64,000 nt of DNA from a candidate division LCP-89 bacterium B3_LCP (GTDB lineage Bacteria > Electryoneota > B3-LCP), in assembly GCA_005223185.1 (NCBI GenBank), contig NJBN01000001.1, forward strand, positions 441,365 to 505,364. The letters are read 5' to 3'. This document shows positions 21,194-53,151 of this stretch, in pieces. The notes below the pieces were generated by a model. It was given only the letters and a program-made list of their open reading frames with translations, searched no databases and had not been told where the DNA came from. A program made the translations under genes and the position numbers. The stretch's first letter is position 1; each line of letters begins with the position of its first letter.

Positions 21194-21567
21194 GGTATTT
21201 CCGTTAGTTATATAAATTAAATTCCCCCGTCAGCTATCTGCAGACTGGGGGAATGCTACCAAATAAGTTGCCCTGAAGTTGATTCGGTGCTTGTGCTACT
21301 TCAGTTCGGGCATCCATTGTTAAACTGATATATTAAATCCCCGCGAACAGCCTGCGATCATAAAGAGAACCATTTGGCCATAATGGGTGCCTCCCTAAAC
21401 GTTTCTTACGTCCTCCGCCCGGTTGGGTTCCGCTTGCGCGGAATGAGGCCTGTATTACGCGCCTGAGAGGTAGGCTCCCTCTATTTTAGTGTTGGTTCTT
21501 TTTGATCGAAACAGGCCGTCTCTACGGGGATTTTTATTGAATTTCATACTATTTATCTGATTTTTAA

Positions 21568-21876
21568 TTAGATTTGTGAACATAATTCCGCCAACTCTTT
21601 AGAACGGTCAGCGACCTTGCGATAGAAATTGGCAGTCTGATCCTCATAATTGGACAACTGCTTACGAGTCCTCAGTAATTCATCCGCTATATTCAAAGCC
21701 GTTAAGATGGCATTCTTCAATGGTGGTATGTCAGAACGCATCTGTAAAAGTAGCTTCATGCGTTTATCGACTATCTCGGCAACTTCCTTAAGGTATTCCT
21801 CATCATCGTAACCAGTTACCGTGTATTCGATATCAAGAATTTTAATCCGTACCGGTGTTTTCGGTTCAGTTGGCAA
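21568..21876 (-). CDS. zapA: Cell-division protein ZapA
   Basis: About 100-aa protein (VRIKILDIEYTVTGYDDEEYLKEVAEIVDKRM…LNIADELL) in the ZapA position downstream of pheT, as in Bacillus. Confidence 0.6.
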   Translation of the reverse strand: MPTEPKTPVRIKILDIEYTVTGYDDEEYLKEVAEIVDKRMKLLLQMRSDIPPLKNAILTALNIADELLRTRKQLSNYEDQTANFYRKVADRSKELAELCSQI

Positions 21877-21917
21877 TGGTATTCCAAGAAATATTATCGT
21901 CAGCTCGATTCTGAAAA

Positions 21918-22229
21918 CTAAAACTCTTCAAGCTTCTTTAAAATAGCTTGAAGTTTCTCCCTGATTTTCCTCTCCTTTTCGGGATCGAACTGGCTATTAA
22001 GTGTTTCCCCTAGCTGGATTGAATTTGATTTTATCTCTCGATTCGCTGTTTCCAGCTCAGCCTTTAAAACAGCTATCTCATTATTAAGCTTTTCGTTATC
22101 CTGCCGCGCTTCCGCCAGAGCGCTGATTACATTTACTACTTTGAGTTCCAGTTCGTCGAAAGCTGAAAGGTCGCCTAATAGGCTGATTTCGAACTGAATT
22201 TTCTCTTCTTGTTGATCTTCAATTGCCAT
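21918..22229 (-). CDS. Small coiled-coil protein (ZapB-like?)
   Basis: 103 aa, almost entirely heptad-like E/K/L-rich sequence, between pheT and zapA. Confidence 0.35.
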   Translation of the reverse strand: MAIEDQQEEKIQFEISLLGDLSAFDELELKVVNVISALAEARQDNEKLNNEIAVLKAELETANREIKSNSIQLGETLNSQFDPEKERKIREKLQAILKKLEEF

Positions 22230-28810: not shown

Positions 28811-29569
28811 ACGCGCAGGGCTGAAATTTCAGGCATATTCGCAAGCATAAATTATATAGAACTTGAAAGATAACTCTTTTCTCCTGCCAGTACAAGTAAA
28901 AAAAGGAAAAAACTGGTTGATAAGATTACCTTTGCAGTCGTTGTAGTTGACATATACGAGGAAAGTTAACTCTCAAGTTCGCTTAAAGTCAACAAAATAG
29001 AGCACAATAAATTGTGATGAAATGGGAATTGGTTCGGGTGCATTAACTAATACATCCGAATAAATTCGGATGCCCAATTTTTAGGTGAAGTCGCTAAAGT
29101 GACTGGTTTGTTCTACGAAATTATTCGGTACAACACAATTAAATATGTTAACAACCAGAAGGATTACCACTCAGATCGAAGTTTTAATAACACGCCATTG
29201 GCTTTAGCCAATTGACCTAAAATTCGGGCATAGGATTTTCCCGAAGGGATTCCCATGGAACAATCCTATGTCAGTAGGGATCTACTTATAATCACTTCGG
29301 GATAAAACTATCGCTTGACTCAAGGGTATAGCACGGCAGCTTGTCTGCCGCCCATTCATAGCGGGGGAAGCACACCCGCTCTACGGATCGATATTTGGAC
29401 TAATTCACCCGTTTGAAATAACAGATAAACGATCACTTCAGTGATCTGAAGTTAAGTAGCCCGGGAAATCTGTTCCCGGGTGTTGGTTGGATAACAGATC
29501 CTTTAATCCTATGACAACAAGAGCCTAGGATATTGACCCAAGCTGAATTCTAAGGCTGAAACAACTTGT

Positions 29570-29594
29570 GCCGCAGAGTCCCTGTACTCTGCAG
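29570..29594. repeat. Palindromic repeat gccgcagagtccctgtactctgcag (copy 1)
   Basis: Stem gcagagt/actctgc with a 6-nt loop; second copy at 29787-29811. Confidence 0.5.
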
Positions 29595-29786
29595 TAATAA
29601 TAACAAATACCCACAGGCTGTCATTCTGGCAAGCGTAGCGCGTCCAGAATCTGACAGCCTTACAATGTTGGGTCTCCACAGTTCAACTGTGGGTTAATCC
29701 TTCCCAAAAGAGCCTCCTTCAGGGGGCTTTAAATATCCGTAGGCCAGTGCTTTAGCGCTGGACTACTTCCCGTCAACTTGACAAGT

Positions 29787-29811
29787 GCCGCAGAGTCCCT
29801 GCACTCTGCGG
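29787..29811. repeat. Palindromic repeat gccgcagagtccctgcactctgcgg (copy 2)
   Basis: 9-bp stem ccgcagagt/actctgcgg; paired with the copy at 29570. Confidence 0.5.
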
Positions 29812-29856
29812 TAGTAATTCCAATTCCCCAGAATCACTTGGGTACAAAACTATCCC

Positions 29857-29885
29857 TTGACTTACCTGTTTAAATTGTTTATATT
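29857..29885 (+). promoter_or_regulatory. Sigma-70-like promoter TTGACT-N17-TATATT
   Basis: ttgact 29857-29862, 17-nt spacer, tatatt 29880-29885. A partial copy of the upstream module (aatcacttSgg…aaaactatc.cttgact) is also present at 29291-29330. Confidence 0.5.
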
Positions 29886-29924
29886 TTGAGTAGAAAAATA
29901 TCGTGTAAAGTAGATGGAGTTGAA

Positions 29925-31754
29925 GTGACTGAATCCTCAAGAAATCGAATAAAACGTTTGTATAAATACATATACATCCTCATATCATTGCTGATATGCA
30001 TACTATTCCTATTCCAGAAAGATACCCAGGCAGAAGCAGCACGGATATACATGGACGGTAATTTCAGCGACTGGGAATCAGTAGAACCACTGCATGTTGA
30101 TCCTGTCGGTGATCAATTAGTTGACAGCCTGGATTTCGGTACTCTCTGGGTGGCTAATGATGAACGATACCTTTTCCTATGCCTGGAACTGGGAACTGAT
30201 ATACTTCTGCAGGAAGAACACGATTTCGATCTCTATCTGGATACGGACAACGACCCATCTACCGGGCAGCCAATCAACGGCATTGGAGCTGATTTCGACT
30301 GGAATTTCAATGATGGAGACGGTCACTTTCGCGTAGGTCCTATTCCCTATCCCGTTGACCATGAAGACTTAAGCTTTGTCACTGCACCCACTGTTTCATC
30401 CGATATCTACGAGATTGTAATCGATCGGTACGCAACTCCTGTGGGTCAGTATGAACTGTTCACCAGCGATACCATATCCATTCTCTTTCATGATAGCGGC
30501 GCCGGGCAGGATTATCTTCCCGATGCGGGAACGACATTACAGTATGTATTCGATGATTCTCCTTTGCCTCCATTTCCGGTATCATCGATTCAAAAGCAGG
30601 ATCCGTCGCATATCCGCGTTCTGTCCTACAACGTACATCTGGATGATTTCTTCGATCCTTACCTTGAAGATGAATACACGCGCATTCTTAATGCTATCGA
30701 ACCGGATGTAATCGCTTTCCAGGAAATCTACGATCACAATGTATTTGAAACAGTTGACCGGGTGACTGCGATGCTGGGTGGGGCATGGTACGGCACCAAG
30801 ATCAACCCGGACATAATCCTGGTCAGCCGATATACATTTGCAGAAACCATTAACATCTACGATGATGGCAACGGAGCTTTCCTCCTCAACCTGCAGCCGG
30901 ATTACGACTGTCAGATGCTGGTTATAAACGCTCACCTGCCCGCTGGACAAGCCAATACAAACAGGCAGAATGAAGTTGACGCCATTATGGCCTTCATCCG
31001 AGATGCCAAAGAACCCGGTGGAGAATTAGAATTGGAAGAGAACACCCCAATTCTCATTACCGGAGATATGAATTTCGTGGGTTACGCGCAACAACTGGTA
31101 ACCATGGTTACCGGGCAGATCTACTTCACGGGCCCGTTCGGCCCTCCCTTCGATCCCGATTGGGATGGAACCGATTTTACCGATCTGACCCCACGCCATA
31201 CAGATACGCCCTTCTATTTCACCTGGTATAACGATTGGAGCTACTATACCCCTGGCCGCTTCGATTTTATGATATACAGCGATTCGGTCCTGGAAGCCTG
31301 GAATAACTTCGTCCTGTTCACTCCGGGAATGTCACCCGATTCCTTAGCCGCCAATGGTCTGCAGGCTGATGACGTTTTAGATGCTTCAGATCACCTCCCC
31401 GTCGTCTGCGATTTCGTGCCTAATCCGGAAATGGGTGTATCTGGCAAGGATGACAGCCACAAACCAGCTGAATACGCTCTGTTACAGAACTTCCCCAACC
31501 CCTTCAACCCCACAACAGTTATCAGTTTTTCTATGCCAGTTTCGAGTTGGGTGAAACTGGATGTGTTCGATATAAACGGACGCAATGTAGGGGCGGGTTT
31601 GTCCCGCAGGGACGCCGAAGGCGAAACCCGCCCTTATACCCCCGGCACCCACCAAATCACCTTCGATGGATCTGGTCTTCCCTCTGGTATCTACTTCTAC
31701 CGTCTGACGGCGGATGATTTCACAGCGATAGGTAAGATGGTGCTGATCAAGTAA
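29925..31754 (+). CDS. Secreted endonuclease/exonuclease/phosphatase (EEP)-family protein with T9SS C-terminal domain
   Basis: Start moved to GTG 29925 (GGAG 5 nt upstream; the TTG at 29886 sits at the predicted transcription start). Signal peptide. EEP motif set: LSYNV, DVIAFQEI, INAHL, TGDMNF, YSD, SDHLPV. C-terminal Por_Secre_tail. Paralog of the C-terminal half of the 33227 gene. Confidence 0.7.
   Translation: MTESSRNRIKRLYKYIYILISLLICILFLFQKDTQAEAARIYMDGNFSDWESVEPLHVDPVGDQLVDSLDFGTLWVANDERYLFLCLELGTDILLQEEHDFDLYLDTDNDPSTGQPINGIGADFDWNFNDGDGHFRVGPIPYPVDHEDLSFVTAPTVSSDIYEIVIDRYATPVGQYELFTSDTISILFHDSGAGQDYLPDAGTTLQYVFDDSPLPPFPVSSIQKQDPSHIRVLSYNVHLDDFFDPYLEDEYTRILNAIEPDVIAFQEIYDHNVFETVDRVTAMLGGAWYGTKINPDIILVSRYTFAETINIYDDGNGAFLLNLQPDYDCQMLVINAHLPAGQANTNRQNEVDAIMAFIRDAKEPGGELELEENTPILITGDMNFVGYAQQLVTMVTGQIYFTGPFGPPFDPDWDGTDFTDLTPRHTDTPFYFTWYNDWSYYTPGRFDFMIYSDSVLEAWNNFVLFTPGMSPDSLAANGLQADDVLDASDHLPVVCDFVPNPEMGVSGKDDSHKPAEYALLQNFPNPFNPTTVISFSMPVSSWVKLDVFDINGRNVGAGLSRRDAEGETRPYTPGTHQITFDGSGLPSGIYFYRLTADDFTAIGKMVLIK
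31587..31638 (+). repeat. Palindromic element embedded in frame in the T9SS C-terminal domain coding sequence
   Basis: gtaggggcgggttt-gtcccgcagggacgccgaaggcg-aaacccgccc: inverted termini plus an inner gtccc…gggac hairpin. Encodes VGAGLSRRDAEGETRPY, which replaces the shorter canonical loop (ATxVDGFRNA). Confidence 0.7.
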
Positions 31755-37734: not shown

Positions 37735-37784
37735 CGCACTGTGTGCGTCATCCTGAACGTAGTGAAGGATCTCATTTCAATTGT

Positions 37785-37814
37785 AGGGGCAGACCTCTGT
37801 GTCTGCCCTTTTTG
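37785..37814 (+). terminator. Rho-independent terminator
   Basis: gggcagac-ctctgt-gtctgccc followed by ttttt. Confidence 0.6.
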
Positions 37815-37894
37815 TTTGCTCCCTACCGTCATCGCGAGGAATCCGTCAGCCGACGGATGACGAAGCGATCCCAAAGCTCTTCAGATAAATCTCA

Positions 37895-38002
37895 TTTTCA
37901 CTGCTGTCGGGTCTCCGTACCCGACAGATCCCGTAGTCGGGGTCGCCCCTGACCCCGATACCATGCCGTAGGGCGGGGGTGTCCGTAAGGACTCCAATGG
38001 AG
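37895..38002. repeat. 108-bp direct repeat, copy 1 (composite of palindromic modules)
   Basis: ttttcactgctgtcgggtctccgtacccgacagatcccgtagtcggggtcg.ccctgaccccgataccatgccgtagggcgggggtgtccgtaaggactccaatggag; near-identical to 38349-38456. Confidence 0.8.
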
Positions 38003-38348
38003 TAGGCGGGGTGGCATGCTTCTGGATCGCCTAAGGCGAATCGAAGCATGTTTAAATCGTCCAGATATTGACCCCACAGCAGATCTGTGGGGCACCTAAC
38101 AGACGAATTCAAGTTTGTCATTCCGCACTTGATGCGGAATCCAGAATACCCGGAAATATCCGAACGGCTCCTATGGAGAATTCCTGAGCTAACCAATTTC
38201 TGTCCCGTGAAGCGGGACGTAAAGGTTTAAGCATCCCGCTTGAGCGGGATAGCATAAAATTAGCCCGGAAATTCATTTCCGGGTGGTGTAAGGTAATTAA
38301 TCAAAATGTCATTCTGAGCAAGCCGAAGGCGCAGCGAAGAATCTCCTG

Positions 38349-38456
38349 TTTTCACTGCTGTCGGGTCTCCGTACCCGACAGATCCCGTAGTCGGGGTCGT
38401 CCCTGACCCCGATACCATGCCGTAGGGCGGGGGTGTCCGTAAGGACTCCAATGGAG
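38349..38456. repeat. 108-bp direct repeat, copy 2
   Basis: Near-identical to 37895-38002. Confidence 0.8.
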
Positions 38457-38750
38457 CTTCCCCCGCCCTTTATTTATCGTTCCACTGGTACAAATTTGTC
38501 CGCCAATTTGTATTGTCCGCTAATTCTGTCATCGGTATTAAGATTACGGTAGATCGCCTGGATGACTAAAATGTCGTAGTCAGGGGTGGATGGGATAGTT
38601 TTCATGTGCATTATATAGTTGGATTATGAGGGGAGATTGTTGTATTTGAACAAACAATTGAGGTGAGTACTTATATATAATATACAACAATTCATCAGAA
38701 AATGCAAGGAGTTTTGGCAGAAATATGGAGTGGGTGGTGGTTCTTTAAAG

Positions 38751-38915
38751 GTTTCAAATCCCCCTTGGTCCCCCTTTGGAAAAGGGGGAAACTGCGTAAT
38801 TCCCTGCATACCCACTAACACCCCCCTTTCCCAAAGGGGGGAGTCCCAACTTGTTGGGACGGGGGGATTTCGGGACGGGGGGATTTCGGGACGGGGGGAT
38901 TTGGGCGGGGGGATT
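38751..38915. repeat. G/C-tract-rich ~165-bp direct repeat flanking the 3' side of the DUF559 gene
   Basis: ggtttcaaatcccccttggtccccc…ccctgcatacccactaa…cccccctttcccaaaggggggag…, then 3 tandem units of gggacggggggatttc. About 85-90% identical to 39275-39425. Confidence 0.8.
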
Positions 38916-39261
38916 ACAGATGATTCCAAATCACCTGCAGCACCCCCTCAATATTATTCATAACCTCCAGGTTGCTGAATCGCAACACTTGAAATCCTAA
39001 TTCATTCAGATATGAATCTCGTTTACGGTCTTTGATCTTACCCTGAGGGGTAAAATGTTGTTCACCATCTAATTCAATAATTATTTTCGCTTTAGGACAA
39101 TAAAAATCAACAATGTAATTTCCAATTACTCTTTGACGATAAAATTGGGTACGTTTTAGTTGTTTGCGTCGTATTCTGTTCCAGAGCCGTTTCTCTGCTT
39201 CAGTGGCATTATTTCTTAACTCTCTGGCAAGAAGTTTCAATTTGGGATTATAATAGATCAT
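38914..39261 (-). CDS. DUF559-family endonuclease-domain protein (Vsr-like PD-(D/E)xK fold)
   Basis: 115 aa; strong match to the remembered DUF559 pattern (YIVDFYCPKAKIIIELDGEQH…FQVLRFSNLEVMNNIEGVLQVI). Confidence 0.8.
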   Translation of the reverse strand: MIYYNPKLKLLARELRNNATEAEKRLWNRIRRKQLKRTQFYRQRVIGNYIVDFYCPKAKIIIELDGEQHFTPQGKIKDRKRDSYLNELGFQVLRFSNLEVMNNIEGVLQVIWNHL

Positions 39262-39274
39262 GCTTCATTGTTGA

Positions 39275-39425
39275 GGTTTCAAATCCCCCTTGATCCCCCT
39301 TTTCCAAAGGGGGAAACTGCATCTTTCCCTGCATACCCACTAATTCCCCCCTTTCCCAAAGGGGGGAGCCCCGACTTGTCGGGGCGGGGGGATTGGACGG
39401 GGGGATTTTAGACAGGGGGATTAAA
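39275..39425. repeat. G/C-tract-rich ~150-bp direct repeat flanking the 5' side of the DUF559 gene
   Basis: ggtttcaaatcccccttgatccccc…ccctgcatacccactaa…cccccctttcccaaaggggggag…gggcggggggatt…; same orientation as 38751-38915. Confidence 0.8.
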
Positions 39426-39509
39426 ACAGCAACCTAACCCACCCCAGAGGGGTGGGGCACCGGTGCGAGGGCACTCCTTCAGAGCTTCCACCTTCGGCGA
39501 AGGCTTTCG

Positions 39510-40412
39510 TCATTGAGTTGATGTTGGTACATCGGTTCTTTCGAGATCGTCCACATCTGCTTCAATTGTTCTTAACCGGTCATCACGCTGAATTCTCCAC
39601 ATAGCGATGACTAATTCTGAAATCAATATCGTCATGAACATCAATACATAAGCTACCAGACTCCAGTTATCAGATCCGCTCTTACTGGATATACATGCAA
39701 AAACAAATGCAGTAGATGAGAAAAAAAGGATTATTACATGACGCAGCTTATGGGACCGCTTGAGAAAGTAATATTCTAGCTCATCTATGGCACTATTATA
39801 CAGCAGAAGGCGTCGATCGTTTTGGTGTAATAGTAATTCATCATATAGCTGCTGTCTACTCTTCTCTATGGCTGCTAGAATTTCCTTATTAAGATATTGG
39901 TTTGTTAGCAGGCTGACAACGCCATAAATGGAAAAGAATATAGAGTAGAAAAACACATCCCTTGAAGCGAAGAATAGGACACTCAGGAGGACACCCAGCG
40001 AAAGTATCATTGCGGTTTCTCGCAAATCGGATGGCGGCTTGTATCTCCTAGGATCAAGCCACCGCCATAAGATAATTAATTCATGCCTTGTTGCCCACAC
40101 CCATAACCAAACAAGGACTCCTGTTAAGGCAAATAGTGCTACATAACATATAACTAGAATATCCGGCCAGGATTCCTTGATACGGTCGATCTCAGATAGC
40201 AACATTCCTGCTCCGAGCAGAGATGTGATAATACCTATGCCCCAACGCCGCGCAACGATCAGCCCTTCACTCTTTTCCTTAAGATTTGGTTTGTAGTTCA
40301 CGATGGTTCTCAGTTTATATTGATTTATATTCTTTCCTGTCAGGTTTTGATCGCCGAAGGCGGGTGTGACCTGATGGCTTTTATCATGCTGTAACGTCTG
40401 GTCGCGGTTCAA
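39510..40412 (-). CDS. Polytopic membrane protein of unknown function (third gene of the three-gene operon)
   Basis: 300 aa with about 6 hydrophobic helices (e.g. ILVICYVALFALTGVLVWLWVWA, LVAYVLMFMTILISELVIAMW); no recognisable motif. Confidence 0.5.
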   Translation of the reverse strand: MNRDQTLQHDKSHQVTPAFGDQNLTGKNINQYKLRTIVNYKPNLKEKSEGLIVARRWGIGIITSLLGAGMLLSEIDRIKESWPDILVICYVALFALTGVLVWLWVWATRHELIILWRWLDPRRYKPPSDLRETAMILSLGVLLSVLFFASRDVFFYSIFFSIYGVVSLLTNQYLNKEILAAIEKSRQQLYDELLLHQNDRRLLLYNSAIDELEYYFLKRSHKLRHVIILFFSSTAFVFACISSKSGSDNWSLVAYVLMFMTILISELVIAMWRIQRDDRLRTIEADVDDLERTDVPTSTQ

Positions 40413-40462
40413 GCAATACAGAGCCTTGAACTTACGAATAAAAAAATGTAAATATCAGGATT

Positions 40463-41050
40463 TTACTCTTCTGCATTCTTTTTATTGGTACACCGCCCAG
40501 CGTAACATTCCCATCCCCTTTCATTCATCGCTCTTTGGTCACTAATTCTCCTCTCAATAAATTCATTTAAACGACTATGGACATACCAGCTATCTAAATA
40601 GATCTGTGCAAAACAATCTGGATCCTCGGATGGATCACGCCCTTTGTATTTGATACTGCCGGTTTTTTTATGAGCAAATTCATTTCTGAGATTGTTTATG
40701 ACTGGAATATATTCATCTAATTCGGTTGCAACAAATGATTTAAAGCAAGGACGTAGAAGTTTATGCACTTGACTAAATGACATTCGTTTGACAATTCTAT
40801 CTAGTTCCTTTAGGCAACTTTCATGAAGTTCGTCATACCCTTCCATCCATAAAATTAGATCGGAAAGGTGCTCATATAGAATTTCTTTCATCATTGATTC
40901 AATTGATGCGTGAATGTCAAGTACAATAGAACGAACAATGTGATTCATATCTGTTCTATCAGAAGTCCAGGATTTCACTAATGCAAGTACTTCTTCTTTC
41001 GTTGAACAGCCTAATATGTTGATATATTTTCTATGATCGGTCTTAGTCAT
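40463..41050 (-). CDS. Hypothetical protein with a HEPN-like Rx4H motif (second gene of the three-gene operon)
   Basis: 195 aa, helical-looking; motif INNLRNEFAHKK fits the HEPN Rx4-6H signature. Motif-level inference only. Confidence 0.45.
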   Translation of the reverse strand: MTKTDHRKYINILGCSTKEEVLALVKSWTSDRTDMNHIVRSIVLDIHASIESMMKEILYEHLSDLILWMEGYDELHESCLKELDRIVKRMSFSQVHKLLRPCFKSFVATELDEYIPVINNLRNEFAHKKTGSIKYKGRDPSEDPDCFAQIYLDSWYVHSRLNEFIERRISDQRAMNERGWECYAGRCTNKKNAEE

Positions 41051-41149
41051 AGTTTATTAGACTCCCTCCGATACAACATCCATTTCTTCGTCGAGTTTGT
41101 ATGACATAGTTTTAGGTGCTTAACGAACGCTGGTATAAAACGGGTACTT

Positions 41150-41893
41150 TTAAGGACTTGTGGTGCCCGTAGAGGTAACCGTTGTTGTTATACCGTTGGG
41201 ATCGGTCGGATAAGGATAAGTTTGTGGATCATTACCAAGTATTTTTTCAATTTCTTCTTTGAAATGATTTCGTATATTCGCAGTGCTAGAGGGTGGATCA
41301 CAATCCAATATGCTGAACATACTGTGTGACCGTGCGTGTAATGGTTTTCCTGAATGTAGTGTATCTAGTCTTTTGAGAGCTGCATCAATAGAATTCACAG
41401 CTATTAGTTTTGAGTACCAATTGCCTAGTTTAACAGCGTTGTCACTGTTTTCTCTAAAGTAGATTTCTATTGCAGCAGCAATCTCGGATACAAAGTCAGG
41501 CAGATTTAAAAAAACACGATGTCCAGCACCATTTACTTGTTTTCTCAAATGCATAGGTGATTGATCGTGGTGTAAGATAAAACGAAGCTTTACTTGTTGT
41601 GTCGCATTCGACTGTCCATACGTATGAATCAATGAATTTCGTATTCGCCATAGATCATCATCCAGACTACCATACTTTGCATTTAGTTTCTTCATATATT
41701 CAGAAATAAATTTCTTAAAATCATTTCCTGTGTTTCTGTCTTTTGTAGGGTCCAGCCCTAATCCCATATAGTCTATACAGCAAAATGAAAGAATATATGC
41801 GCCCATTAGAGATCTTCCTTCAATTGCCCTTATGATATCAGCCACTGCCGTATCAAAGAAATTAAATTTTAATATGTTATAATCATATGCCAT
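41150..41893 (-). CDS. Hypothetical protein with a HEPN-like Rx4H motif (first gene of the three-gene operon)
   Basis: 247 aa; agggag RBS; motif DLWRIRNSLIHTYG fits Rx4H; C-terminal low-complexity Thr/Pro tail. Motif-level inference only. Confidence 0.45.
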   Translation of the reverse strand: MAYDYNILKFNFFDTAVADIIRAIEGRSLMGAYILSFCCIDYMGLGLDPTKDRNTGNDFKKFISEYMKKLNAKYGSLDDDLWRIRNSLIHTYGQSNATQQVKLRFILHHDQSPMHLRKQVNGAGHRVFLNLPDFVSEIAAAIEIYFRENSDNAVKLGNWYSKLIAVNSIDAALKRLDTLHSGKPLHARSHSMFSILDCDPPSSTANIRNHFKEEIEKILGNDPQTYPYPTDPNGITTTVTSTGTTSP

Positions 41894-41960
41894 TGGAATT
41901 ACTCCCTGATTTAATTTTGGTTTATGCCTGCTTTACGTGATTCTCAATCACTATCCCTAA

Positions 41961-41989
41961 AATATACCCCAATTCATAACACAAGTCAA
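41961..41989 (-). promoter_or_regulatory. Sigma-70-like promoter TTGACT-N17-TATATT for the three-gene operon
   Basis: Minus-strand reading cttgact-tgtgttatgaattgggg-tatatt; about 60 nt upstream of ATG 41893. Confidence 0.5.
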
Positions 41990-42019
41990 GAAGAATATTT
42001 ACCAGATGTGTTTCATTCA

Positions 42020-42048
42020 ATAAAAAAGGCACCCCAGCGGGGCGCCTT
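42020..42048 (-). terminator. Rho-independent terminator (minus strand)
   Basis: Minus-strand hairpin ggcgccccgctggggtgcc followed by ttttttatt; about 450 nt downstream of the P5C dehydrogenase stop and just upstream of the operon promoter. Confidence 0.6.
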
Positions 42049-42156
42049 CTGTCCTCTGTTCTCAATTCCCCCACTTTACCCTTGCATTCCAGGCAATTTT
42101 GTTGTATATTATATATATACTCCAATTATCAAATTTCCATCCTCAATCCTCTCACC

Positions 42157-42191
42157 AACTGCTAACTGCTAACTGCTAACTGCTAACTGCC
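42157..42191. repeat. Tandem heptamer (aactgct/ctaactg) x5
   Basis: Five perfect contiguous 7-bp units in the non-coding region downstream of the P5C dehydrogenase gene. Confidence 0.9.
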
Positions 42192-42487
42192 AAAAACCAT
42201 CTTCTTGACAACGACACATCTGTCACAGGCGACAAATATGACCGACAACCTAAGACGCATGAAAAACAATCACATAACCCCCAAAAACGACAGATATGGC
42301 GCAATTTCAGATTTTGTGCGTGGGAGTCAAAATTTCTGTCGCTTTTGTGCTGAAAGGCAAAGTCACCTTCGTCAAATCTGTCGCCAATCTGAAATGTAAA
42401 ATAATCGGCTTCGCGCCCATAAAATAATCCCTCTGACTCCAGGAGCCGGGGGATTATTCTGTCTTCTGTCTTCTTTATTCTTTTTCC

Positions 42488-44035
42488 CTAAAACTGCTCA
42501 CACACCGCCTTACCCTGAGTGAAGAGCGCTAAATAATCTCTGCCGCCAGCTTTGGAATCGGTGCCGGACATGTTGAAACCACCGAAGGGTTGAACGCCCA
42601 CCAGAGCGCCCGTACACTTGCGGTTCAGGTAGAGGTTGCCTGCATGCAGTTCCCTGCGCCCGACTTCCAAATTGCCGCGGTTACCGCTGTATAAAGCGCC
42701 GGTCAATCCGAATTCAGTGCCGTTTGCGATGGCTATGATATGCTCGAAATCCTTCGCTTTGATGAAAGCCAGAACCGGCCCGAAGATCTCCTCCTGAGCG
42801 ATGCGCGCTTCCTCATCTACGTCCTTGATGATGGTTGGCTGAATGAAATACCCGCCGTCGGGACCCTTGCCTCCACCCAGAACCAGTTCGCCTTCCTTCT
42901 TACCGATTTCGATGTATTCCAAAATCTTGTTGTAGGCAGCTTCATCCACCACGCCGCCCATGAAGTTGTCCTGATCCTTCACTTCACCGATGGTGATGGG
43001 CTTAGCCTTTTCAACCACTTTCGCCACCACTTCATCATAAACCGATTCGTGAACGATGGCACGGGAACAGGCGGAACACTTCTGCCCCTGAAATCCAAAA
43101 GCAGCAGCGACGATCCCCTGTGCCGCCGCATCCAGATCGGCAGATTCATCGACCGCGATGAAGTCCTTACCGCCCATCTCCAGAACGGTGCGCTTGATCC
43201 AGATCTGACCTTCGGATTTCTTGGCAGCACGTTCATGGATGCGCAAACCTACTTCCATAGAGCCGGTAAAGGCGATGAAACGGGTGCGGGGATGATCGAC
43301 TATGGTATCACCGATTTTACTGCCGGGTCCGGGGAGGAAATTCAGCACGCCGTCAGGCAGACCGGCTTCCTTCATGATCAGATAAAACTGGTATCCGATC
43401 GCCGGAGCGGTTGACGCCGGTTTCAGGATTACGGTGTTGCCTGCAACTATGGCAGCCGAAGTCATCCCGCAGAGGATAGCTAAGGGGAAGTTCCAGGGAG
43501 GGATTACGGCGCCCACACCTAAAGGTATGTAATACAGTTCGTTCTCTTCGCCGGGGTAGGGGATAACCGGCTGAGGCTGACCGTAGCGCATCATCTCTCT
43601 GCCGTAGAATTCCAGAAAGTCGATAGCTTCGGCTACGTCGGCGTCCGCTTCTAACCAGTTTTTGCCGACTTCATATATCATCCAGGCGGCTAATTCGCGG
43701 CGGCGGCGCTTCATTATGGCTGCGGCTTTGATCAAATAGCGGGCGCGATCATCGGGAGCAACGCGGCTCCAGAGCTTGAAAGTCTCATCCGCAGTAGCTA
43801 TGGCTTTTTCAGCTTGTTCCTTGCTTCCTTTGGAACAGTTGGCTACGACTTCATCGTACTTGGAGCAGTTCAAAGATACGATCTTATCATCGGTGACGAT
43901 CTCCTTTCCGCCGATGACTAAAGGTATGGTAATTCCTAACTGCTTCTGGACTTTATCCAGCGCAGCTATCATTTCCTGCCGGTTTTCGCTTTTGGAAAAA
44001 TCGGTAAAGGGGGTTGGTACAAATTCGGGGAGCAT
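42488..44035 (-). CDS. L-glutamate gamma-semialdehyde (1-pyrroline-5-carboxylate) dehydrogenase
   Basis: 515 aa aldehyde dehydrogenase with catalytic-Cys region GFQGQKCSACSRAIV and Glu motif LEMGGKD; size and sequence match RocA/PruA-type P5CDH. Confidence 0.85.
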   Translation of the reverse strand: MLPEFVPTPFTDFSKSENRQEMIAALDKVQKQLGITIPLVIGGKEIVTDDKIVSLNCSKYDEVVANCSKGSKEQAEKAIATADETFKLWSRVAPDDRARYLIKAAAIMKRRRRELAAWMIYEVGKNWLEADADVAEAIDFLEFYGREMMRYGQPQPVIPYPGEENELYYIPLGVGAVIPPWNFPLAILCGMTSAAIVAGNTVILKPASTAPAIGYQFYLIMKEAGLPDGVLNFLPGPGSKIGDTIVDHPRTRFIAFTGSMEVGLRIHERAAKKSEGQIWIKRTVLEMGGKDFIAVDESADLDAAAQGIVAAAFGFQGQKCSACSRAIVHESVYDEVVAKVVEKAKPITIGEVKDQDNFMGGVVDEAAYNKILEYIEIGKKEGELVLGGGKGPDGGYFIQPTIIKDVDEEARIAQEEIFGPVLAFIKAKDFEHIIAIANGTEFGLTGALYSGNRGNLEVGRRELHAGNLYLNRKCTGALVGVQPFGGFNMSGTDSKAGGRDYLALFTQGKAVCEQF

Positions 44036-44073
44036 TGTGCCTCCGTTAGGTTATTTTAGTTATATTTATAAGT

Positions 44074-44125
44074 CTGAAAATATAAGCAAAAACCCTTGAA
44101 AATTCAAGGGATTTTAGGGAAAAAG
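44074..44125. repeat. ~50-bp direct repeat, copy 1, with central inverted repeat cccttgaa-aa-ttcaaggg
   Basis: tctgaaaatataagcaaaaacccttgaaaattcaagggattttagggaaaaag; about 85% identical to 45516-45568. The pair brackets the DUF3800-like gene. Confidence 0.75.
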
Positions 44126-44343
44126 AATGTAAAATGTAGAATGGTGAATTTTAAATTAGGAATTTGTAATGGGAGGGAGAATCAGGGACATCTCCAAAGG
44201 TGCAGGCAAGCCGCTGAGGGAGCTTACGCCCTGTCCCGAGCACACACGTTTTTGTTGTAAGCAATATGATTTTGGGATAGATTAAATATTTATTTCATCA
44301 ATAAATCTTCTCAAATAGTCATATTTCTGATTACTAAGAATAT

Positions 44344-45447
44344 CTAGTTGGCGCTTACTCGCAATAGAATGTCTTCGCGAGCCTTCTTCAACCTACTAAG
44401 CATCGGGCCAATCTGACCACTCATTTGCCCCACAAAATCATATAAATCTTGCTCGGAGTCCGGTATTTTATAACCTTTTGGACTACTTGCTATAATCACT
44501 CCTTTATCTCTAAGCTTTGCAATTACCTTTGAGCGCAAGTAATGAGTAGTTACTTTATTCGGGCTAACCTGATTTAGAATTCTCTTTAGCTGTTCAGTAA
44601 ATATGTACCTTTTTGAATTTACATATCTAAAGTGGTAAAGTAAATATTTCAACGCTTCTAGCTGATCTGTTATAACTTCATCTTTAGTGTCCATATTTTC
44701 TTCAATAAAATTTGATGCTTTATAAAGTGCTAGCTCACAGATAAGATTATCAAAATCGTTTCCTTTAGTAATCCATGACTTATTTGTAGAAGGGTGACTT
44801 ATTGGTGGCCATGTGTCAATTAGCAAAGTCCGATTTAATAAAATATTCATAAAATCTTTTGAAACGGTTGTGGATTTTTTGGGATCAAAATGTCTTGCGA
44901 GTGTTCCAGATATAAAGTCAGCAAGTTGAACTATTGGTTGTTCATGACTCGCAACAAATCCGAATTCTGCTCGGATGAATAGATCAGGTACATGATTCTC
45001 GTTTACATATTTTTGAAAGCCTTCCATAAAAGATCTTCCCCCGTATTCATCGGATATTATAAACATTTCGGGGAAGGTACGATATAACTTTCTGTAAAGC
45101 AATCCATGCGTAAACTTAATAAATGGCTCTCTGTAAATTAATCCACTGCTTTCCCATACCTCACGTTTATCAATTATAATAGAATAAAATTTAAAATCTA
45201 ATCCAGCAATATCCTTTAATATCTTTCTCCTTCTTTCATCATTTGAACCAACATTCTTGGACTTCATCTCCCCAGTGCGAAAATGGATTTTTCGTATTTC
45301 ATCTGCATCCCGTTCCAATTCTACTAAATGATCGTGTTCTACTATAATAGCAGTAATAATAAAGCATGTTGACACTCCTCCTTTTGAAACATCCAAGTTA
45401 GGGTCTCCATACGCGTCAACGAATGCATACTGAGGTTCTAAGTTCAT
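44344..45447 (-). CDS. DUF3800-like protein with C-terminal extension
   Basis: 367 aa; N-terminal YAFVDAYGDP and later SHEQPIVQLADFISGTLARHF resemble remembered DUF3800 signatures (DESG-like start, Q.AD..AG…R). Family call from memory only. Confidence 0.5.
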   Translation of the reverse strand: MNLEPQYAFVDAYGDPNLDVSKGGVSTCFIITAIIVEHDHLVELERDADEIRKIHFRTGEMKSKNVGSNDERRRKILKDIAGLDFKFYSIIIDKREVWESSGLIYREPFIKFTHGLLYRKLYRTFPEMFIISDEYGGRSFMEGFQKYVNENHVPDLFIRAEFGFVASHEQPIVQLADFISGTLARHFDPKKSTTVSKDFMNILLNRTLLIDTWPPISHPSTNKSWITKGNDFDNLICELALYKASNFIEENMDTKDEVITDQLEALKYLLYHFRYVNSKRYIFTEQLKRILNQVSPNKVTTHYLRSKVIAKLRDKGVIIASSPKGYKIPDSEQDLYDFVGQMSGQIGPMLSRLKKAREDILLRVSAN

Positions 45448-45515
45448 TTCTTCTTTAAATCCTATTCTTTGTATGGCACAACAATTCGGATCATATTTTA
45501 TATATCTCTAGACGT

Positions 45516-45568
45516 TTTAAAATATAAGCAAAAACCCCTGCAATTTCAAGGGGTTTTGGGGGTAAAGC
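45516..45568. repeat. ~50-bp direct repeat, copy 2
   Basis: ttttaaaatataagcaaaaacccctgcaatttcaaggggttttgggggtaaag; same orientation as 44074-44125. Confidence 0.75.
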
Positions 45569-45645
45569 GTGTTTATAAAGATTATTATACAATCGATCTT
45601 TAGCATTTCATGTTCCCAAAAAGGGAAAATAGTTCTTGACTTCTA

Positions 45646-45674
45646 TTTGGGAACTTCTTATCTTATATATAGTA
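45646..45674 (+). promoter_or_regulatory. Sigma-70-like promoter TTGACT-N17-TATCTT upstream of higB
   Basis: ttgact 45646-45651, 17-nt spacer, tatctt 45669-45674, about 40 nt upstream of ATG 45714. Confidence 0.4.
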
Positions 45675-45713
45675 TATAAGGTAGAATATTTATGAATCCA
45701 GCTATAGCGCACA

Positions 45714-45998
45714 ATGGAAATAATTAATCTACAAGCGTTAGAAAGATATATCAAGAAGCACAGGACTGCGGAAGAAGTAATAAAGAACTGGGTGGTGTTT
45801 GTCGAAAATGCAGATTGGGATCGTCCTTACGATGTCAAACAGGATTACGATGCAAGATTTATTAGTTCTAAGCGTGTGATCTTCAAATTAGGTAACTCTT
45901 GGCGTATTGATACACGAATTGCTTATAACAGTAGAAAGATTTACGTTATCCGTATTGGAACTCACGAAGAGTACAATAAATGGAAATATAAAGATTAA
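45714..45998 (+). CDS. higB: Type II toxin HigB (E. coli YgjN-like RelE-fold mRNA interferase)
   Basis: 94 aa; C-terminal KRVIFKLGNSWRIDTRIAYNSRKIYVIRIGTHEEYNK aligns with E. coli HigB (HYVFNVGGNELRVVAMVFFESQKCYIREVMTHKEYD). Confidence 0.8.
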   Translation: MEIINLQALERYIKKHRTAEEVIKNWVVFVENADWDRPYDVKQDYDARFISSKRVIFKLGNSWRIDTRIAYNSRKIYVIRIGTHEEYNKWKYKD

Positions 45999-46012
45999 CT
46001 AGAGAGTCAGAT

Positions 46013-47542
46013 ATGAGCCTAAAAGTTATAAAGACTCAAAATGATTACGATGAGGCTCTTCGGGAAATTGAAGAGTTCATCATACTCGATCCCGTTCCTG
46101 GGACAGAAGAAGCCAATCGCCTGGAAGTCCTGTCGGTGCTGATAAAGGCGTATGAGGATGAGCATTTCCATTTTGACCTCCCCGATCCGATTTCAGCAAT
46201 CAAATTTGTTATGGAGCAACGTGGCCTTAAGCGGTCTGATTTGGTGCCCTTTATTGGTTCCCCTTCAAAAGTGTCAGAAATACTATCTGGGAAAAGGCAA
46301 CTCAGTCTCTCAATGATGAGACGACTCAATGAAGGATTGAATATACCCGCAGAAGTTTTGATGAAAGAACGTCAAAAGGAAATACCTGAAGAAACTGATA
46401 TTCAGTGGAGTAAGTTTCCGTTAACCGAGCTGAGTAAAAGAAACTGGTTCCCCGAGTTCTCTGGGACGCTACCTAAACTTAAGGAATACGCTGAGGATTT
46501 AATGCGACCGAAAATAGAGTTACTTTTAAAAAATTGTACGATGATTCCTCTTCAAAGGACTTCAAGTATAAATCTGCGAAGTGACAAAGTGATAGATCTT
46601 TATTCGTTAGTTGCATGGCAAACCAGAGTTGTTGAAAAAGCTAAAGGAATCAGCCTTGAAGTGCCTTATTCTGGGAAAATTGCCAAAGCACTTCTCAAGC
46701 AAATTGCAAGTCTGACAGTTCTGGATGAAGGACCTCTAGCAGCACGAGAGATATTATATAAAAACGGTATTCATCTTGTTGTTGAACCGCATCTAAAGAG
46801 TACATACTTAGATGGTGCAGTAATGCTTCTCAATGATGGCACACCAATAATCGCTTTGACACTTAGATACAACCGACTTGATAATTTCTGGTTTAGCCTT
46901 ATTCATGAATTAGTACACTTGCATAAACATCTAGATGAGGAAAACTCATACTTTTTTGATGATTTTGAAGGAACAGAGAATCTACTAGAAATTGAGGTTG
47001 AAGCAGACAAACATGCGGGTGAGATTTTAATACCAAAGAGTAGTTGGAGTATAGAAAGATCCATTTATTATTCTACAAGAGGAACTTTTGATGAGATTAA
47101 ACAATTGGCCAGAAAACTAAATGTACATCCCGCAGTCTTAGTAGGCCGAATTCATCATGATTCTGGGGATTTTAGGAGATATCATAGGCTTCTGGGGAAA
47201 GGTATCCCCCAAGAGCTATTTTCAGATTCGTCTGTTAACTATTTGATTAGACAGCCAAATATAATAAATAACAGAAAGGGTACAAAAATGGGAAGAATGC
47301 GTAAAACAATTCGTTATAAGCTTTACGATGGTAGAAAAGACGTTTACCATGGTATCACAAAAAACCTTGAGCGAAGAGAACAAGAACACGAACGGGATGG
47401 CAAAAAGTTTTCACGGGTAGAGAGGGTGGGACCTGCCGTAACAGTTGAAACTGCAAAACAATGGGAAGAACAATCTCTGAAGAGTTACCGGAAGAATCAC
47501 GGGGGTAAGAATCCAAAGTATAATGAGGATAAAACTGGATAA
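46013..47542 (+). CDS. Fusion protein: HigA-like HTH antitoxin + ImmA/IrrE (DUF955, COG2856) HEXXH metallopeptidase + C-terminal GIY-YIG-like module
   Basis: Residues 1-120 match HigA (IGSPSKVSEILSGKRQLSLSMMRRLNEGLNIPAEVL vs E. coli IGSKSMVSRVLSGKRKLTLEHAKKLATRFGISPALF). Central region carries LIHELVHLHKH and EADKHAGEILIP, typical of ImmA/IrrE Zn-peptidases. C-terminal ~90 aa carries IRYKLYDGRKDVYHGITKNLERREQEH, resembling the GIY…YIG…R…E/H core. One uninterrupted 509-codon ORF starting 15 nt after higB. Confidence 0.7.
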   Translation: MSLKVIKTQNDYDEALREIEEFIILDPVPGTEEANRLEVLSVLIKAYEDEHFHFDLPDPISAIKFVMEQRGLKRSDLVPFIGSPSKVSEILSGKRQLSLSMMRRLNEGLNIPAEVLMKERQKEIPEETDIQWSKFPLTELSKRNWFPEFSGTLPKLKEYAEDLMRPKIELLLKNCTMIPLQRTSSINLRSDKVIDLYSLVAWQTRVVEKAKGISLEVPYSGKIAKALLKQIASLTVLDEGPLAAREILYKNGIHLVVEPHLKSTYLDGAVMLLNDGTPIIALTLRYNRLDNFWFSLIHELVHLHKHLDEENSYFFDDFEGTENLLEIEVEADKHAGEILIPKSSWSIERSIYYSTRGTFDEIKQLARKLNVHPAVLVGRIHHDSGDFRRYHRLLGKGIPQELFSDSSVNYLIRQPNIINNRKGTKMGRMRKTIRYKLYDGRKDVYHGITKNLERREQEHERDGKKFSRVERVGPAVTVETAKQWEEQSLKSYRKNHGGKNPKYNEDKTG

Positions 47543-47601
47543 CAGGTGTTAAATGCAGATTGTCCCCCATATTTTCAGCTGTAGATTAGACTGAGTTCCC
47601 C

Positions 47602-50957: not shown

Positions 50958-53151
50958 ATGATGAGGGTAATAGGACGGTTAACACTACTTTGGGCGGCTT
51001 TGATCGTTGCGGTTTCCGTGAATGCGGGCACGCTTCATCCTGATCTTAGAGCCAAGATGAATTCAAGTTCTGATGGAGAATTCATCAGAATTTTAATAAC
51101 ACTGGAAGAACAAGCCGACTTTAACACGCTGATGGCTGCTACCACAGGTCTGTCAAAACAGGAAGCCCGGACTTTGGTAGTCGGACACTTGAAAGAATTG
51201 GCTAATTCAACACAACGGGAAATAAGGGAGTATTTGGAAGCACAGAAAAACCTGGGTCGAGTCAAGGAACTCAGATCTGTGTGGATAGCTAATATAATGT
51301 ACGGTCTGGCAACTCCTGAGGTCATTCGGACTCTGGATGAATTCCCCGGAATAGCCAATGTTTCCTGGGATCCACAACGCTACCTACTCTTTCATGAACG
51401 ACCAAACGAAGTTCATCCTCCTAACAATCCCCCTACGGATGAGATTGCCTGGGGCATTGCGGATATCAATGCCGATGACGTATGGGGTATGGGCTACACC
51501 GGAGCTGGCATAATTGTAGGTATGATCGATACAGGTGTAAATTACAATCATGTGGATCTGGCTGACCATATGTGGAACGGAGGTCCCCAATACCCCAATC
51601 ACGGTTGGGATTTTCACAATAACGATAACGACCCCATGGATGACGGAAGCGCCTTCATGGGTGGTCATGGCACTCATACTGCCGGATCAGTGGCGTCCGA
51701 TGGAACGGGCAGGTTCGCGGTGCGGCGTTGCTCCTGATGCCAATATCATGGCTATCAAGGTGCTTTCCGGAAATGGGTACGGCAGCGAAGGACCCGTAAT
51801 CGCCGGAATCGGTTTTGCGGTTGATCAGGGAGCCGAAATTTTCAGTATGTCCCTGGGATTTGTCAGTACTTCTCAGCATTACCAGTTTAGAACTGCTTGT
51901 AATAATGCTTTGGCAGCCGGTGTAATTGGTGCTATTGCGGCGGGTAATGAAGGTAACCAGCAGTGGTCGTATCCCATCCCCGGAAATGTACGGACGCCTG
52001 GGAACGTTCCGCCGCCGTGGCTTCATCCCGATCAAGTGCTTACTGGTGGTTTAAGCTGTGTGGTGACTTGTGGGGCAACCAATATGTACCAATCTTTAGC
52101 GGGATTTTCCAGCCGCGGGCCGGTTACCTGGGAAGGAATTAACCCCTGGTATGATTATCCATATGCAGGCGGATCTCAGATGGGATTGATAGATCCGGAC
52201 GTCAGTGCACCCGGTGAAGACGTAAAATCGTGCTGGTTCATGGATAACTGGGGATATGCGGACGGCTGGGATGGTACTTCCATGGCGACTCCGCATGTGG
52301 CGGGCACATTCGCGTTGATGCTGCATAAAGATCCCAGTTTGACTCCGGCTGACCTTGACATGTACCTGGAAACAACGGCAATTGACTGGGGTTCGCCCGG
52401 AAAAGATAACGATCATGGAGCGGGCAAGATCGATGCTTTGGTTGCGGTTTCTGCAGTTCCCGGCGGTACTCTGCCTGATGTTATCATAACGACTACACCT
52501 ACAGGATCTACGTCATTACCATCTTCCGGTGGTACATTATATCATGACGTTAATCTGGTGAATAACGAAACATACGGTGTGCCCATGGCTGCCTGGCTGG
52601 ATTTGGAATACCCCAATGGCAGTTGGTCTGGCGCACTGATTTTGCGTAATCTCACCCTCATGGTGGGAGTGAACGTAACCCGTTCACTGACAACTACCAT
52701 TGCAGGTAGTGAGCCAGATGGCAATTATAACCTCTGGGTTCACATGGGGTCGTCTTACGGGGGGACTATATACTCAGAAGACAGCTTCCCCTTTACCAAG
52801 GGTCTGCCTGACAGTGATCCGGGTGAATGGGTATCCGAAACGGCTGTTTACGGCTGGGAAGAGGAACTTGTTTCCATGCAGACGCCGGAATCGTACAGTT
52901 TGGGAAGCGCTTATCCCAATCCCTTCAACCCGTCCACGACTATACCTTTCAGTCTGGCTGATAACGGTTATGTTTCGCTGAAAATTTTCGATCTACAGGG
53001 ACGTGAAGTTGCTACCATAGCTGAAGGTGAGATGTCTGCGGGACAGTATAAAGTTACTTTCGATGGGACGAACTTCGGTTCGGGAATTTACCTGTACCAG
53101 TTGAAGACAGCGGATTTCTCTCAGACCATGAAGATGACGCTGATAAAGTAG
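50958..53151 (+). pseudogene. Subtilisin-like S8 serine peptidase with T9SS C-terminal domain, interrupted by a +1 frameshift near 51723
   Basis: RBS aggagg; signal peptide. Frame 0 carries the Asp and His catalytic regions (GMIDTGV, GGHGTHTAGSVA) and stops at 51737. Frame +1 continues with GVAPDANIMAIKVL and the Ser region (GTSMATPHVAG), ending in a Por_Secre_tail. Removing 1 nt around gtgCggc gives the natural …GRFAVGVAPDAN…. May be a true pseudogene or a sequence error. Confidence 0.65.

Follow-up and report, generated by a model that had tools for sequence, protein, structure and literature searches.

Low-GC accessory modules on both sides of a conserved P5CDH gene in a candidate division LCP-89 bacterium

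We analysed a 64-kb stretch of the genome of the candidate division LCP-89 bacterium B3_LCP, an uncultured bacterium from sediment (contig NJBN01000001.1, positions 441,365 to 505,364), called the window throughout and numbered from its first letter, and focused on the region between 37.7 and 47.6 kb, where the gene for L-glutamate gamma-semialdehyde dehydrogenase (P5CDH), a housekeeping enzyme of proline catabolism, lies amid genes of low GC content. We read this region, at a probability of roughly 0.6, as two variable zones which are anchored on the core gene P5CDH and have taken up, step by step, small low-GC modules that are each selfish or addictive. P5CDH, its putative upstream control element and a non-coding element on its 3' side are shared with relatives and, judged from sequence comparison, split the region into two independent zones. 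The single island of about 10 kb that had been proposed in a preliminary description of this DNA has to be divided for this reason. Its inventory was confirmed, as the palindromic cluster, the DUF559 gene, the heptamer repeat, the DUF3800 gene, the pair of higB and a long open reading frame (ORF) and the central P5CDH were all found in place. The cargo looks accessory and horizontally acquired because its GC and its GC at third codon positions (GC3) are far below those of the rest of the window. A defence function of the region is plausible only, because no complete known system is present.

The seven cargo genes were compared with the other 34 genes of the window. Both measures were far lower in the cargo. 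The GC of the cargo genes was 0.35-0.42 versus 0.487±0.027 in the other genes, and their GC3 was 0.27-0.43 versus 0.494±0.052. In GC, six of the seven fell short of the other genes by more than 4 standard deviations (SD), and a membrane protein gene by 2.4 SD. P5CDH itself (42488-44035, minus strand; TIGR01237, E 4e-216) ranks among the most GC-rich genes of the window, with a GC of 0.53 and a GC3 of 0.61. Therefore, with a typical core gene at the centre and low-GC cargo on either side, there are two low-GC blocks and not one. We regard the composition of the cargo, its domain content and its presence or absence in relatives as established.

The closest relatives found were the loci L001, L002 and L081, the last being 97.7% identical to L001 at the DNA level and thus of the same species. 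Scans of genome and metagenome collections for P5CDH returned nothing above the 81-83% amino acid identity seen with L001 and L002, and nothing closer than 81% in the metagenomes. The distances among the window, L001 and L002 are about equal, with core proteins 65-83% identical in all three pairs, and all comparisons of gene order were made between genera or higher ranks. The genes fur, pyrF, pyrE, the gene for a metallo-beta-lactamase (MBL)-fold hydrolase and P5CDH are collinear in the window, L001 and L002. The question whether P5CDH is flanked by different cargo elsewhere, which the preliminary description had raised, can be answered with yes. Between MBL and P5CDH we found three states: no gene in L001 and L081 (a spacer of 327 nt in L001); a helix-turn-helix (HTH) protein with an M78 peptidase domain (408 aa, 57% identical to that of the window) plus HigB (34%) in L002; and the same pair together with a DUF3800 gene and a C-terminal GIY-YIG extension in the window. 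In L002 the pair has a GC of 0.36-0.38 versus 0.49-0.59 in the syntenic core genes. On the left side of P5CDH the non-coding element, present in the window and L002, is the sole common sequence, and the cargo is without homology among the window, L001 and L002. In L001 P5CDH runs straight into an epimerase gene and selA, and compact, intact junctions are found on both sides of P5CDH. In L002 three low-GC ORFs without a Pfam or PADLOC match (one with a weak PHROG match) are followed by genes for a glycosyltransferase and an OPT transporter and by lptD.

We extended the survey to 30 more distant P5CDH loci, of which 27 offered enough 3' sequence to be scored in segments of 2.1 kb. A low-GC block directly 3' of P5CDH was present at 6 of these 27 loci compared with 7 of 118 other 2.1-kb segments (odds ratio 4.5, Fisher p 0.016). 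The six blocks code for a GmrSD_N plus HNH protein (L099, 11627-13021), a pair of HTH and M78 genes (L027, 12655-13766), a protein of 982 aa with an N6_Mtase match (L012, 5493-8441), small proteins without an assigned family (L009, 5742-7031, and L002) and a type IX secretion system (T9SS) cargo protein (L005). From this distribution, cargo seems to have landed repeatedly on the 3' side of P5CDH in several lineages of the Fibrobacteres-Chlorobi-Bacteroidetes (FCB) group.

The right zone extends from P5CDH to MBL (44.04-47.60 kb). According to our model it would hold an old resident pair of HigB and HTH-M78 genes which was extended by a mini GIY-YIG unit; in a later step a DUF3800 gene would have been inserted within the zone, with duplication of a hairpin and promoter element of about 80 nt that lies upstream of P5CDH. 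The DUF3800 gene (44344-45447, minus strand; 367 aa, PF12686 at E 8e-11, GC 0.35) is nested between two copies of this element and was not present at the L001 and L002 loci. The proximal copy (44052-44130, minus strand) consists of a hairpin and TTGAAT-17-TATATT, and the distal copy (45494-45572, minus strand) adjoins the operator region of HigB, as in L002. Together they form a direct repeat of 79 nt with 78% identity, in which a hairpin followed by T's overlaps the promoter-like site TTGAAT/TTGAAA-17-TATATT. The element also precedes P5CDH in L001, L081 and L002. In L001 it stands directly after the stop codon of MBL, where it would serve as predicted terminator of MBL and promoter of P5CDH. 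The two copies of the window share 66 of 87 positions with each other, compared with 44 of 85 with L001 and 37-39 of 87 with L002. Since they are closer to each other than to the orthologous elements, the duplication took place within this lineage and accompanied the DUF3800 insertion. An import of the repeats together with the gene was ruled out on the same grounds. Hence the 79-nt repeat, by its sequence relationships, appears to be neither imported nor a generic recombination repeat, and we regard its origin as established. As an effect of the duplication, DUF3800 and P5CDH are each preceded by one copy of the element.

The HigB-family toxin-like gene (45714-45998, plus strand) matched PF09907 (E 6e-15) and the PADLOC profile PD-Lambda-2_A (PDLC03981, E 1e-21). 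It is followed by an ORF of 509 aa (46013-47542, plus strand), in which a HigA-like HTH, an M78 peptidase and a C-terminal mini GIY-YIG domain are joined. Its HTH and M78/ImmA peptidase part (46013-47287, plus strand) matched PD-Lambda-2_B (PDLC03982, E 9.5e-136) over residues 1-405 of the 509-aa ORF and 398 of 402 profile positions. The N-terminus resembles HigA chains in the Protein Data Bank (PDB; E about 1e-6), and the HExxH zinc motif reads HELVH. Both proteins also had PHROG matches (HigB phrog_5734 at 5e-20, HTH-M78 phrog_11202 at 1e-30). The region upstream of HigB (45573-45713) contains the palindrome GTTCCCAAA...TTTGGGAAC, whose core is conserved in L002. Because this operator region is well conserved between the window and L002 at one site, the HigB/HTH-M78 pair is old there.

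A similar arrangement is known from PD-lambda-2 (Vassallo et al. 2022; PMC9519451), in which a HigB-like first gene precedes an Xre/HigA HTH fused to an M78/ImmA peptidase. Defence by PD-lambda-2 in E. coli depends on a third gene, which is a relative of a P4 antitoxin (PMC9519451). In contrast, component C is not present in the window, where the in-frame mini GIY-YIG unit stands in its place, and L002 is without any third component. Accordingly, no third gene was found before MBL, and the C-terminal 110 aa of the long ORF had no PADLOC match at E<=1. The ORF runs on in frame for about 100 residues past the PD-Lambda-2_B part, and its last 84 residues (47288-47539) make up the mini GIY-YIG unit (47288-47542, plus strand; 84 aa), which continues the upstream reading frame without an intervening stop. 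The unit has an ATG of its own with AAGGG upstream. Its family comprises 317 representatives, mostly stand-alone proteins of 80-120 aa; a Pfam GIY-YIG match was obtained for 24 of 30 aligned members, and Y10, Y20, G22, R30, H34, E60 and N79 are invariant or nearly so. No long protein with the match at its C-terminus was found among the best 150 representatives. Therefore, the fusion is either unique or derived from a lost stop codon. The pair of higB and a fusion gene given in the preliminary description is present, and the fusion has three parts.

DUF3800 domains have been described as RNase H2-like effectors of type VII retrons (PMC7736814) and in association with eleven different RNA motifs (PMC5737381). 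The DUF3800 gene of the window resembles these in its Pfam domain and in being accompanied by several hundred non-coding bases ending in a terminator-like hairpin. In contrast to type VII retrons, no reverse transcriptase is encoded near it or elsewhere in the region, and in contrast to the RNA-motif systems no Rfam DUF3800 motif was found at E<=10. For the 259 nt that follow the gene downstream, the folding energy was modestly more favourable than in shuffled sequences (z -2.0). The protein had a weak PADLOC match (PDC-M04A, 4.8e-7) and no match among PDB sequences.

The left zone is entered past the non-coding element 3' of P5CDH (42066-42420, plus strand), which is shared with L002 (10880-11250, minus strand). 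It consists of a promoter-like box (42078-42113), the heptamer AACTGCT in 4.9 copies (42157-42190) and a body rich in CTGTCG/CGACAG. Compared with the syntenic site of L002 it shows 77% identity over 151 nt besides the common promoter-like box, and L002 has a hairpin of the repetitive extragenic palindromic (REP) type at the position of the heptamer. We consider the element non-coding because a 1-nt indel disrupts the overlapping ORF. The low-GC cargo starts immediately past it in the window and L002 alike. Rfam returned no credible family within 36.5-48.5 kb, this element included. A structured RNA was considered but found no support (folding z -0.39, one compensatory pair in two sequences), and a 14-mer taken from the element gave only chance matches in a viral collection. 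The promoter-like box motif occurs in exactly 2 copies in the window versus 0.04 expected. The second, inverted copy (38672-38720, minus strand; CCTTGCAT-N14-TGTTGTATATTATA) provides the left arm of a perfect 19-nt inverted repeat with arms at 38672-38690 and 42099-42117. The inverted copy was ruled out as a full paralog of the non-coding element, as beyond a local alignment of 26 nt the similarity lies within the range of shuffles.

Between the arms of this inverted repeat lies the whole left cargo, namely the DUF559 cassette and three genes for two putative HEPN proteins and a membrane protein. In our model the zone (about 38.7-42.1 kb) would have received a solo-type HEPN gene, a very rare HEPN gene with a membrane protein, and the DUF559 cassette. 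The 247-aa putative HEPN protein (41893-41150, minus strand) carries the motif RNSLIH and its gene is preceded by a promoter-like site (41989-41961). It had no Pfam or PADLOC match, and its AlphaFold2 model (pLDDT 87.8) found nothing significant in a Foldseek search of the PDB. We identified 22 homologs scattered across unrelated taxa; across 21 sequences R85 and H90 of the Rx4-6H motif are invariant. The homologs stand as solo genes in three types of surroundings: amid densely packed reverse transcriptase, TIR, MazE/Fic, RelE/HTH, SIR2 and HNH genes in Leptospira kobayashii (L163; AP025028.1, 3479604-3496284), beside a gene whose product carries an NmeDI_C restriction-enzyme domain (L166), and beside genes for a Y1 transposase and a PIN protein (L168). 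At two further loci (L161 and L162) the contigs end within 260 nt after the homolog, as if assemblies break there. Known abortive-infection and toxin RNases of the HEPN type comprise AbiV, HEPN-MNT toxins and the HEPN domain of Csm6, but the 247-aa protein is without a match to any Pfam or PADLOC family, and, in contrast to HEPN-MNT toxins, neither an MNT nor a recognisable antitoxin gene adjoins it.

The second, HEPN-like protein (195 aa; 41050-40463, minus strand) has the motif RNEFAH and matched PF18735 (RiboL-PSP-HEPN) at E 1.4e-5, below the cut-off of that family. A single homolog was found among 5.8 billion proteins. It is preceded by a different protein of 192 aa with a hydrophobic N-terminus and an Rx4H motif of its own, RNKVTH (L164, 202-1743), so two HEPN genes are stacked there too. 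The third gene (40412-39510, minus strand; GC 0.42) codes for a membrane protein of 300 aa with about five hydrophobic segments according to a crude hydropathy scan, its TTG start being uncertain; it had no family match and no homolog in any fetched locus. The three genes are co-directional with the promoter-like site in front. The preliminary description had taken them as an operon of three RNxxxH and membrane genes. The direction and the Rx4H motifs of two of them agree with this, but the genes are not kept as a unit elsewhere. A conserved system was rejected, as the 247-aa homologs are solo, the 195-aa homolog has another partner and the membrane protein is without homolog. From their sequence relationships the genes are probably better read as two or three stacked modules.

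The DUF559 cassette (38749-39427, minus strand) consists of the DUF559 gene (38914-39261, minus strand; PF04480, E 5e-38) between two repeat modules (38749-38920 and 39274-39427). The modules measure 150-170 nt and contain direct repeats of 121-138 nt with 88-89% identity. In each, AATCCCCC is followed by two CCCCCTTTnnnAAAGGGGG palindromes and then by 3-4 GGGGGGATT. The CCCCCTTTnnnAAAGGGGG palindrome had no further copy in the window and was absent from 169 unrelated loci (2.1 Mb in total). In contrast, the repeat family of the modules (AATCCCCC, CCCCCTTTnnnAAAGGGGG, GGGGGATT) was present at all five independent DUF559 loci, the window included. In L170 (1230-1945; DUF559 with 83% amino acid identity) the cassette aligned end to end with both modules at a mean column identity of 78%. 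L171 (1371-1985; 63%) has direct repeats on either side of the gene, L181 (1886-2469; 64%) two modules downstream of it, and L191 (1770-3120; 63%) five repeat copies upstream and more downstream. Moreover, of 20 over-long ORF calls among the closest DUF559 homologs, 17 extend into the repeat, with tails such as PPFEKGGLGG and SPKPPLEKGE. The contig of the window carries a paralog with 96% identity (CEE37_01595) at a distance of about 61 genes. We regard the recurrence of the cassette as established.

The repeat is not exclusive to DUF559. Among 73 stretches of a viral collection, selected by motif alone, only one contained a DUF559 homolog, at a distance of 1.2 kb, which ruled out this possibility. 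Since the repeat occurs mostly without the gene, it is a dispersed repeat family in which this DUF559 subfamily is consistently embedded. The pattern would resemble that of genes for REP-associated tyrosine transposases (RAYT) among REPs and would also be expected of a repeat-targeting nuclease of the homing type. Short GC-rich palindromes in intergenic clusters are likewise known from REPs, from bacterial interspersed mosaic elements (BIME) and from RAYT-REPIN systems (PMC3116915, PMC3337134). RAYT genes are flanked by REPs, just as the DUF559 gene of the window lies between copies of a dispersed palindromic repeat. However, DUF559 is a Vsr-like nuclease of the PD-(D/E)XK type and not a transposase, the modules are direct repeats, and no Y1 transposase was seen in the region. 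Tentatively, and with rather low odds, the DUF559 gene with its AATCCCCC/CCCCCTTTnnnAAAGGGGG/GGGGGATT modules might represent an undescribed selfish nuclease-plus-repeat cassette, which homes into or is copied with a dispersed palindromic repeat and seeds integrase-less hotspots. If this were true, such cassettes and not integrases would help to seed accessory hotspots. The constant link with one palindromic repeat family could also explain the role of the very common genes annotated as DUF559.

At the left edge of the region a hairpin cluster (37735-38470) contains at least 13 short GC-rich hairpins. In a scan for perfect GC-rich hairpins with a stem of at least 8 bp we counted 28 in the window compared with 1.5±1.3 in mononucleotide shuffles of the whole window; 16 of the 28 are located within 37.7-39.5 kb. 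The hairpin families recur in intergenic spacers at 6.8, 33.07, 36.69, 48.6 and 55.7 kb and also in L002 and L005, and are therefore a native REP/BIME-like feature of the lineage. Accordingly, the cluster with its GC of 0.51 is native-type sequence and not low-GC cargo. Within it a direct repeat of 108 nt with 99% identity (37895-38002 and 38349-38456, 454 nt apart) suggests a recent duplication or gene conversion among REP-like units. No Y1_Tnp match was found among the window ORFs scanned.

These repeats are the starting point of the most serious alternative, which we nevertheless consider rather unlikely: a single island assembled by recombination between repeats, whose palindromes and direct repeats would have acted as crossover substrates capturing each gene. 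Repeats are indeed found at every module junction (the REP-like cluster and the direct repeats around DUF559 and DUF3800), the 19-nt inverted repeat brackets 38.69-42.10 kb, and the 108-nt repeat indicates recent repeat turnover. However, the REP-like units are spread over intergenic spacers of the window and are not island-specific, the repeats around DUF3800 derive from the element upstream of P5CDH, and those around DUF559 accompany their gene in other genomes too. Moreover, the HEPN genes and the HigB/HTH-M78 pair are without a flanking repeat pair of their own, and P5CDH with its flanking non-coding elements is conserved. The repeat-mediated recombination put forward in the preliminary description is backed by adjacency; as the repeats of DUF3800 and DUF559 have other explanations and no pair surrounds the whole island, we consider it weakly supported.

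The region could also be the remnant of a classical integrative element, that is, a prophage, an integrative and conjugative element or an integrase island, with an integrase and att sites that were lost by decay or are located beyond the region. Low GC and genes rich in toxin-antitoxin and nuclease functions are typical of such remnants, and the PHROG matches of HigB and HTH-M78 would fit. We consider this improbable. Neither tRNA nor tmRNA genes were detected in the whole 64-kb window by ARAGORN, no ORF scanned in the region, including ORFs over repeats, had a Pfam match to an integrase or transposase at the curated cut-off, and genes for phage structural proteins were absent. Neither the region nor either zone as a whole is enclosed by a pair of direct repeats; only internal pairs and the one 19-nt inverted repeat were found. 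Besides, a conserved core gene splits the cargo. The flanks, surveyed to about 27 kb and 55 kb, comprise threonyl-tRNA synthetase (ThrRS) and several genes with T9SS sorting domains (Por_Secre_tail) on the left and the MBL-fold hydrolase, a pyrE-like gene, pyrF, fur and S8 peptidases with T9SS tails on the right. Thus, the absence of integrase, transposase and tRNA genes, the location between T9SS cargo and pyr/fur genes, and the reading against a classical mobile element, for which integrase, tRNA edge and bracketing direct repeats were looked for and not found, were all borne out.

Slightly less probable still is ordinary vertical inheritance, in which the AT-rich genes would have been resident for a long time, and normal divergence and rearrangement between genera would account for what differs from L001 and L002. 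The relatives are distant, the HigB/HTH-M78 pair and its operator are common to L002 at one site, and the divergence between both copies of the upstream element has reached 24%, so that the DUF3800 insertion is not recent. On the other hand, the GC of the cargo lies far below that of the other genes, by the SD values given above, one HEPN protein has a single homolog while those of the other are scattered across unrelated taxa, the contig carries a 96%-identical DUF559 paralog, and the junctions of L001 are intact and compact on both sides of P5CDH. An artefact of assembly or binning, with low-GC segments joined via repeats, is very improbable even though the contig comes from a metagenome-assembled genome and has repeats at the junctions, because the right-zone junctions recur independently in L002, both P5CDH-associated elements continue into the cargo and the contig spans 636 kb.

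Several points weigh against two variable zones filled piecemeal as well. Given the rough equidistance of the nearest relatives (about 65-83% identity in core proteins), gains are not separable from losses, and the breaks in gene order on the left side could be ordinary rearrangement. The site of the HigB/HTH-M78 pair and its operator are common to L002, which means that part of the content is stable and not variable. PADLOC recognised no complete known defence system in the region. Low-GC blocks are only modestly enriched on the 3' side of P5CDH (p 0.016), and a T9SS cargo gene is one of the six. Finally, direct evidence for any mechanism of acquisition is lacking. We propose that the modules may arrive through homologous recombination in flanking core DNA or through their own nuclease-driven copying, and not by an integrase. 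They may act as toxin-antitoxin or abortive-infection-type systems, with predicted HEPN RNases, a HigB mRNA interferase checked by its partner, and nucleases. The defence-island hotspot of the preliminary description therefore stands in part: the sites are variable, low in GC and accessory, but defence is deduced, and of PD-lambda-2 PADLOC recognises only A and B and no C. The further PADLOC matches were the weak one to PDC-M04A and generic nuclease profiles.

Among known arrangements, the closest counterpart is the core defence hotspots (cDHS) of Pseudomonas. In cDHS1 and cDHS2 of Pseudomonas aeruginosa (PMC10250203), as in the region analysed here, variable cargo of lower GC lies between fixed core genes, and in both cases the content is not obviously part of one class of mobile element. 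A non-coding RNA gene marks the edge in Pseudomonas, and the left zone is bordered by a conserved non-coding element, which does not correspond to a known RNA. However, our zones measure 3.5-4.7 kb compared with a median of 26 kb in cDHS, and three lineage-level comparisons without a complete annotated defence system stand against more than 1600 cDHS1 regions. Our reading would extend the concept of an integrase-less hotspot anchored on core genes from the Proteobacteria, which are well sampled, to a candidate phylum of the FCB group that has hardly been sampled. The finding is ordinary in kind and leaves current views as they stand; its value lies in leads and not in a new principle. These leads are the two HEPN families, both rare and one of them with just one homolog known, the PD-lambda-2 core with its GIY-YIG tail and, as the best one, the DUF559-repeat cassette.

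Three of the window proteins carry the locus tags CEE37_01900, _01910 and _01915. Outside the region, further 1-kb windows with a GC of 0.40-0.42 were observed at 1-1000, 21001-22000 and 29001-30000. Among the S8 peptidase genes of the right flank, the ORFs 50958-51737 and 51550-53151 (both plus strand) overlap and both match Peptidase_S8, and the corresponding two matches abut in L002. Together they may be a single S8 peptidase gene with a T9SS tail that carries a frameshift or was given a wrong start.

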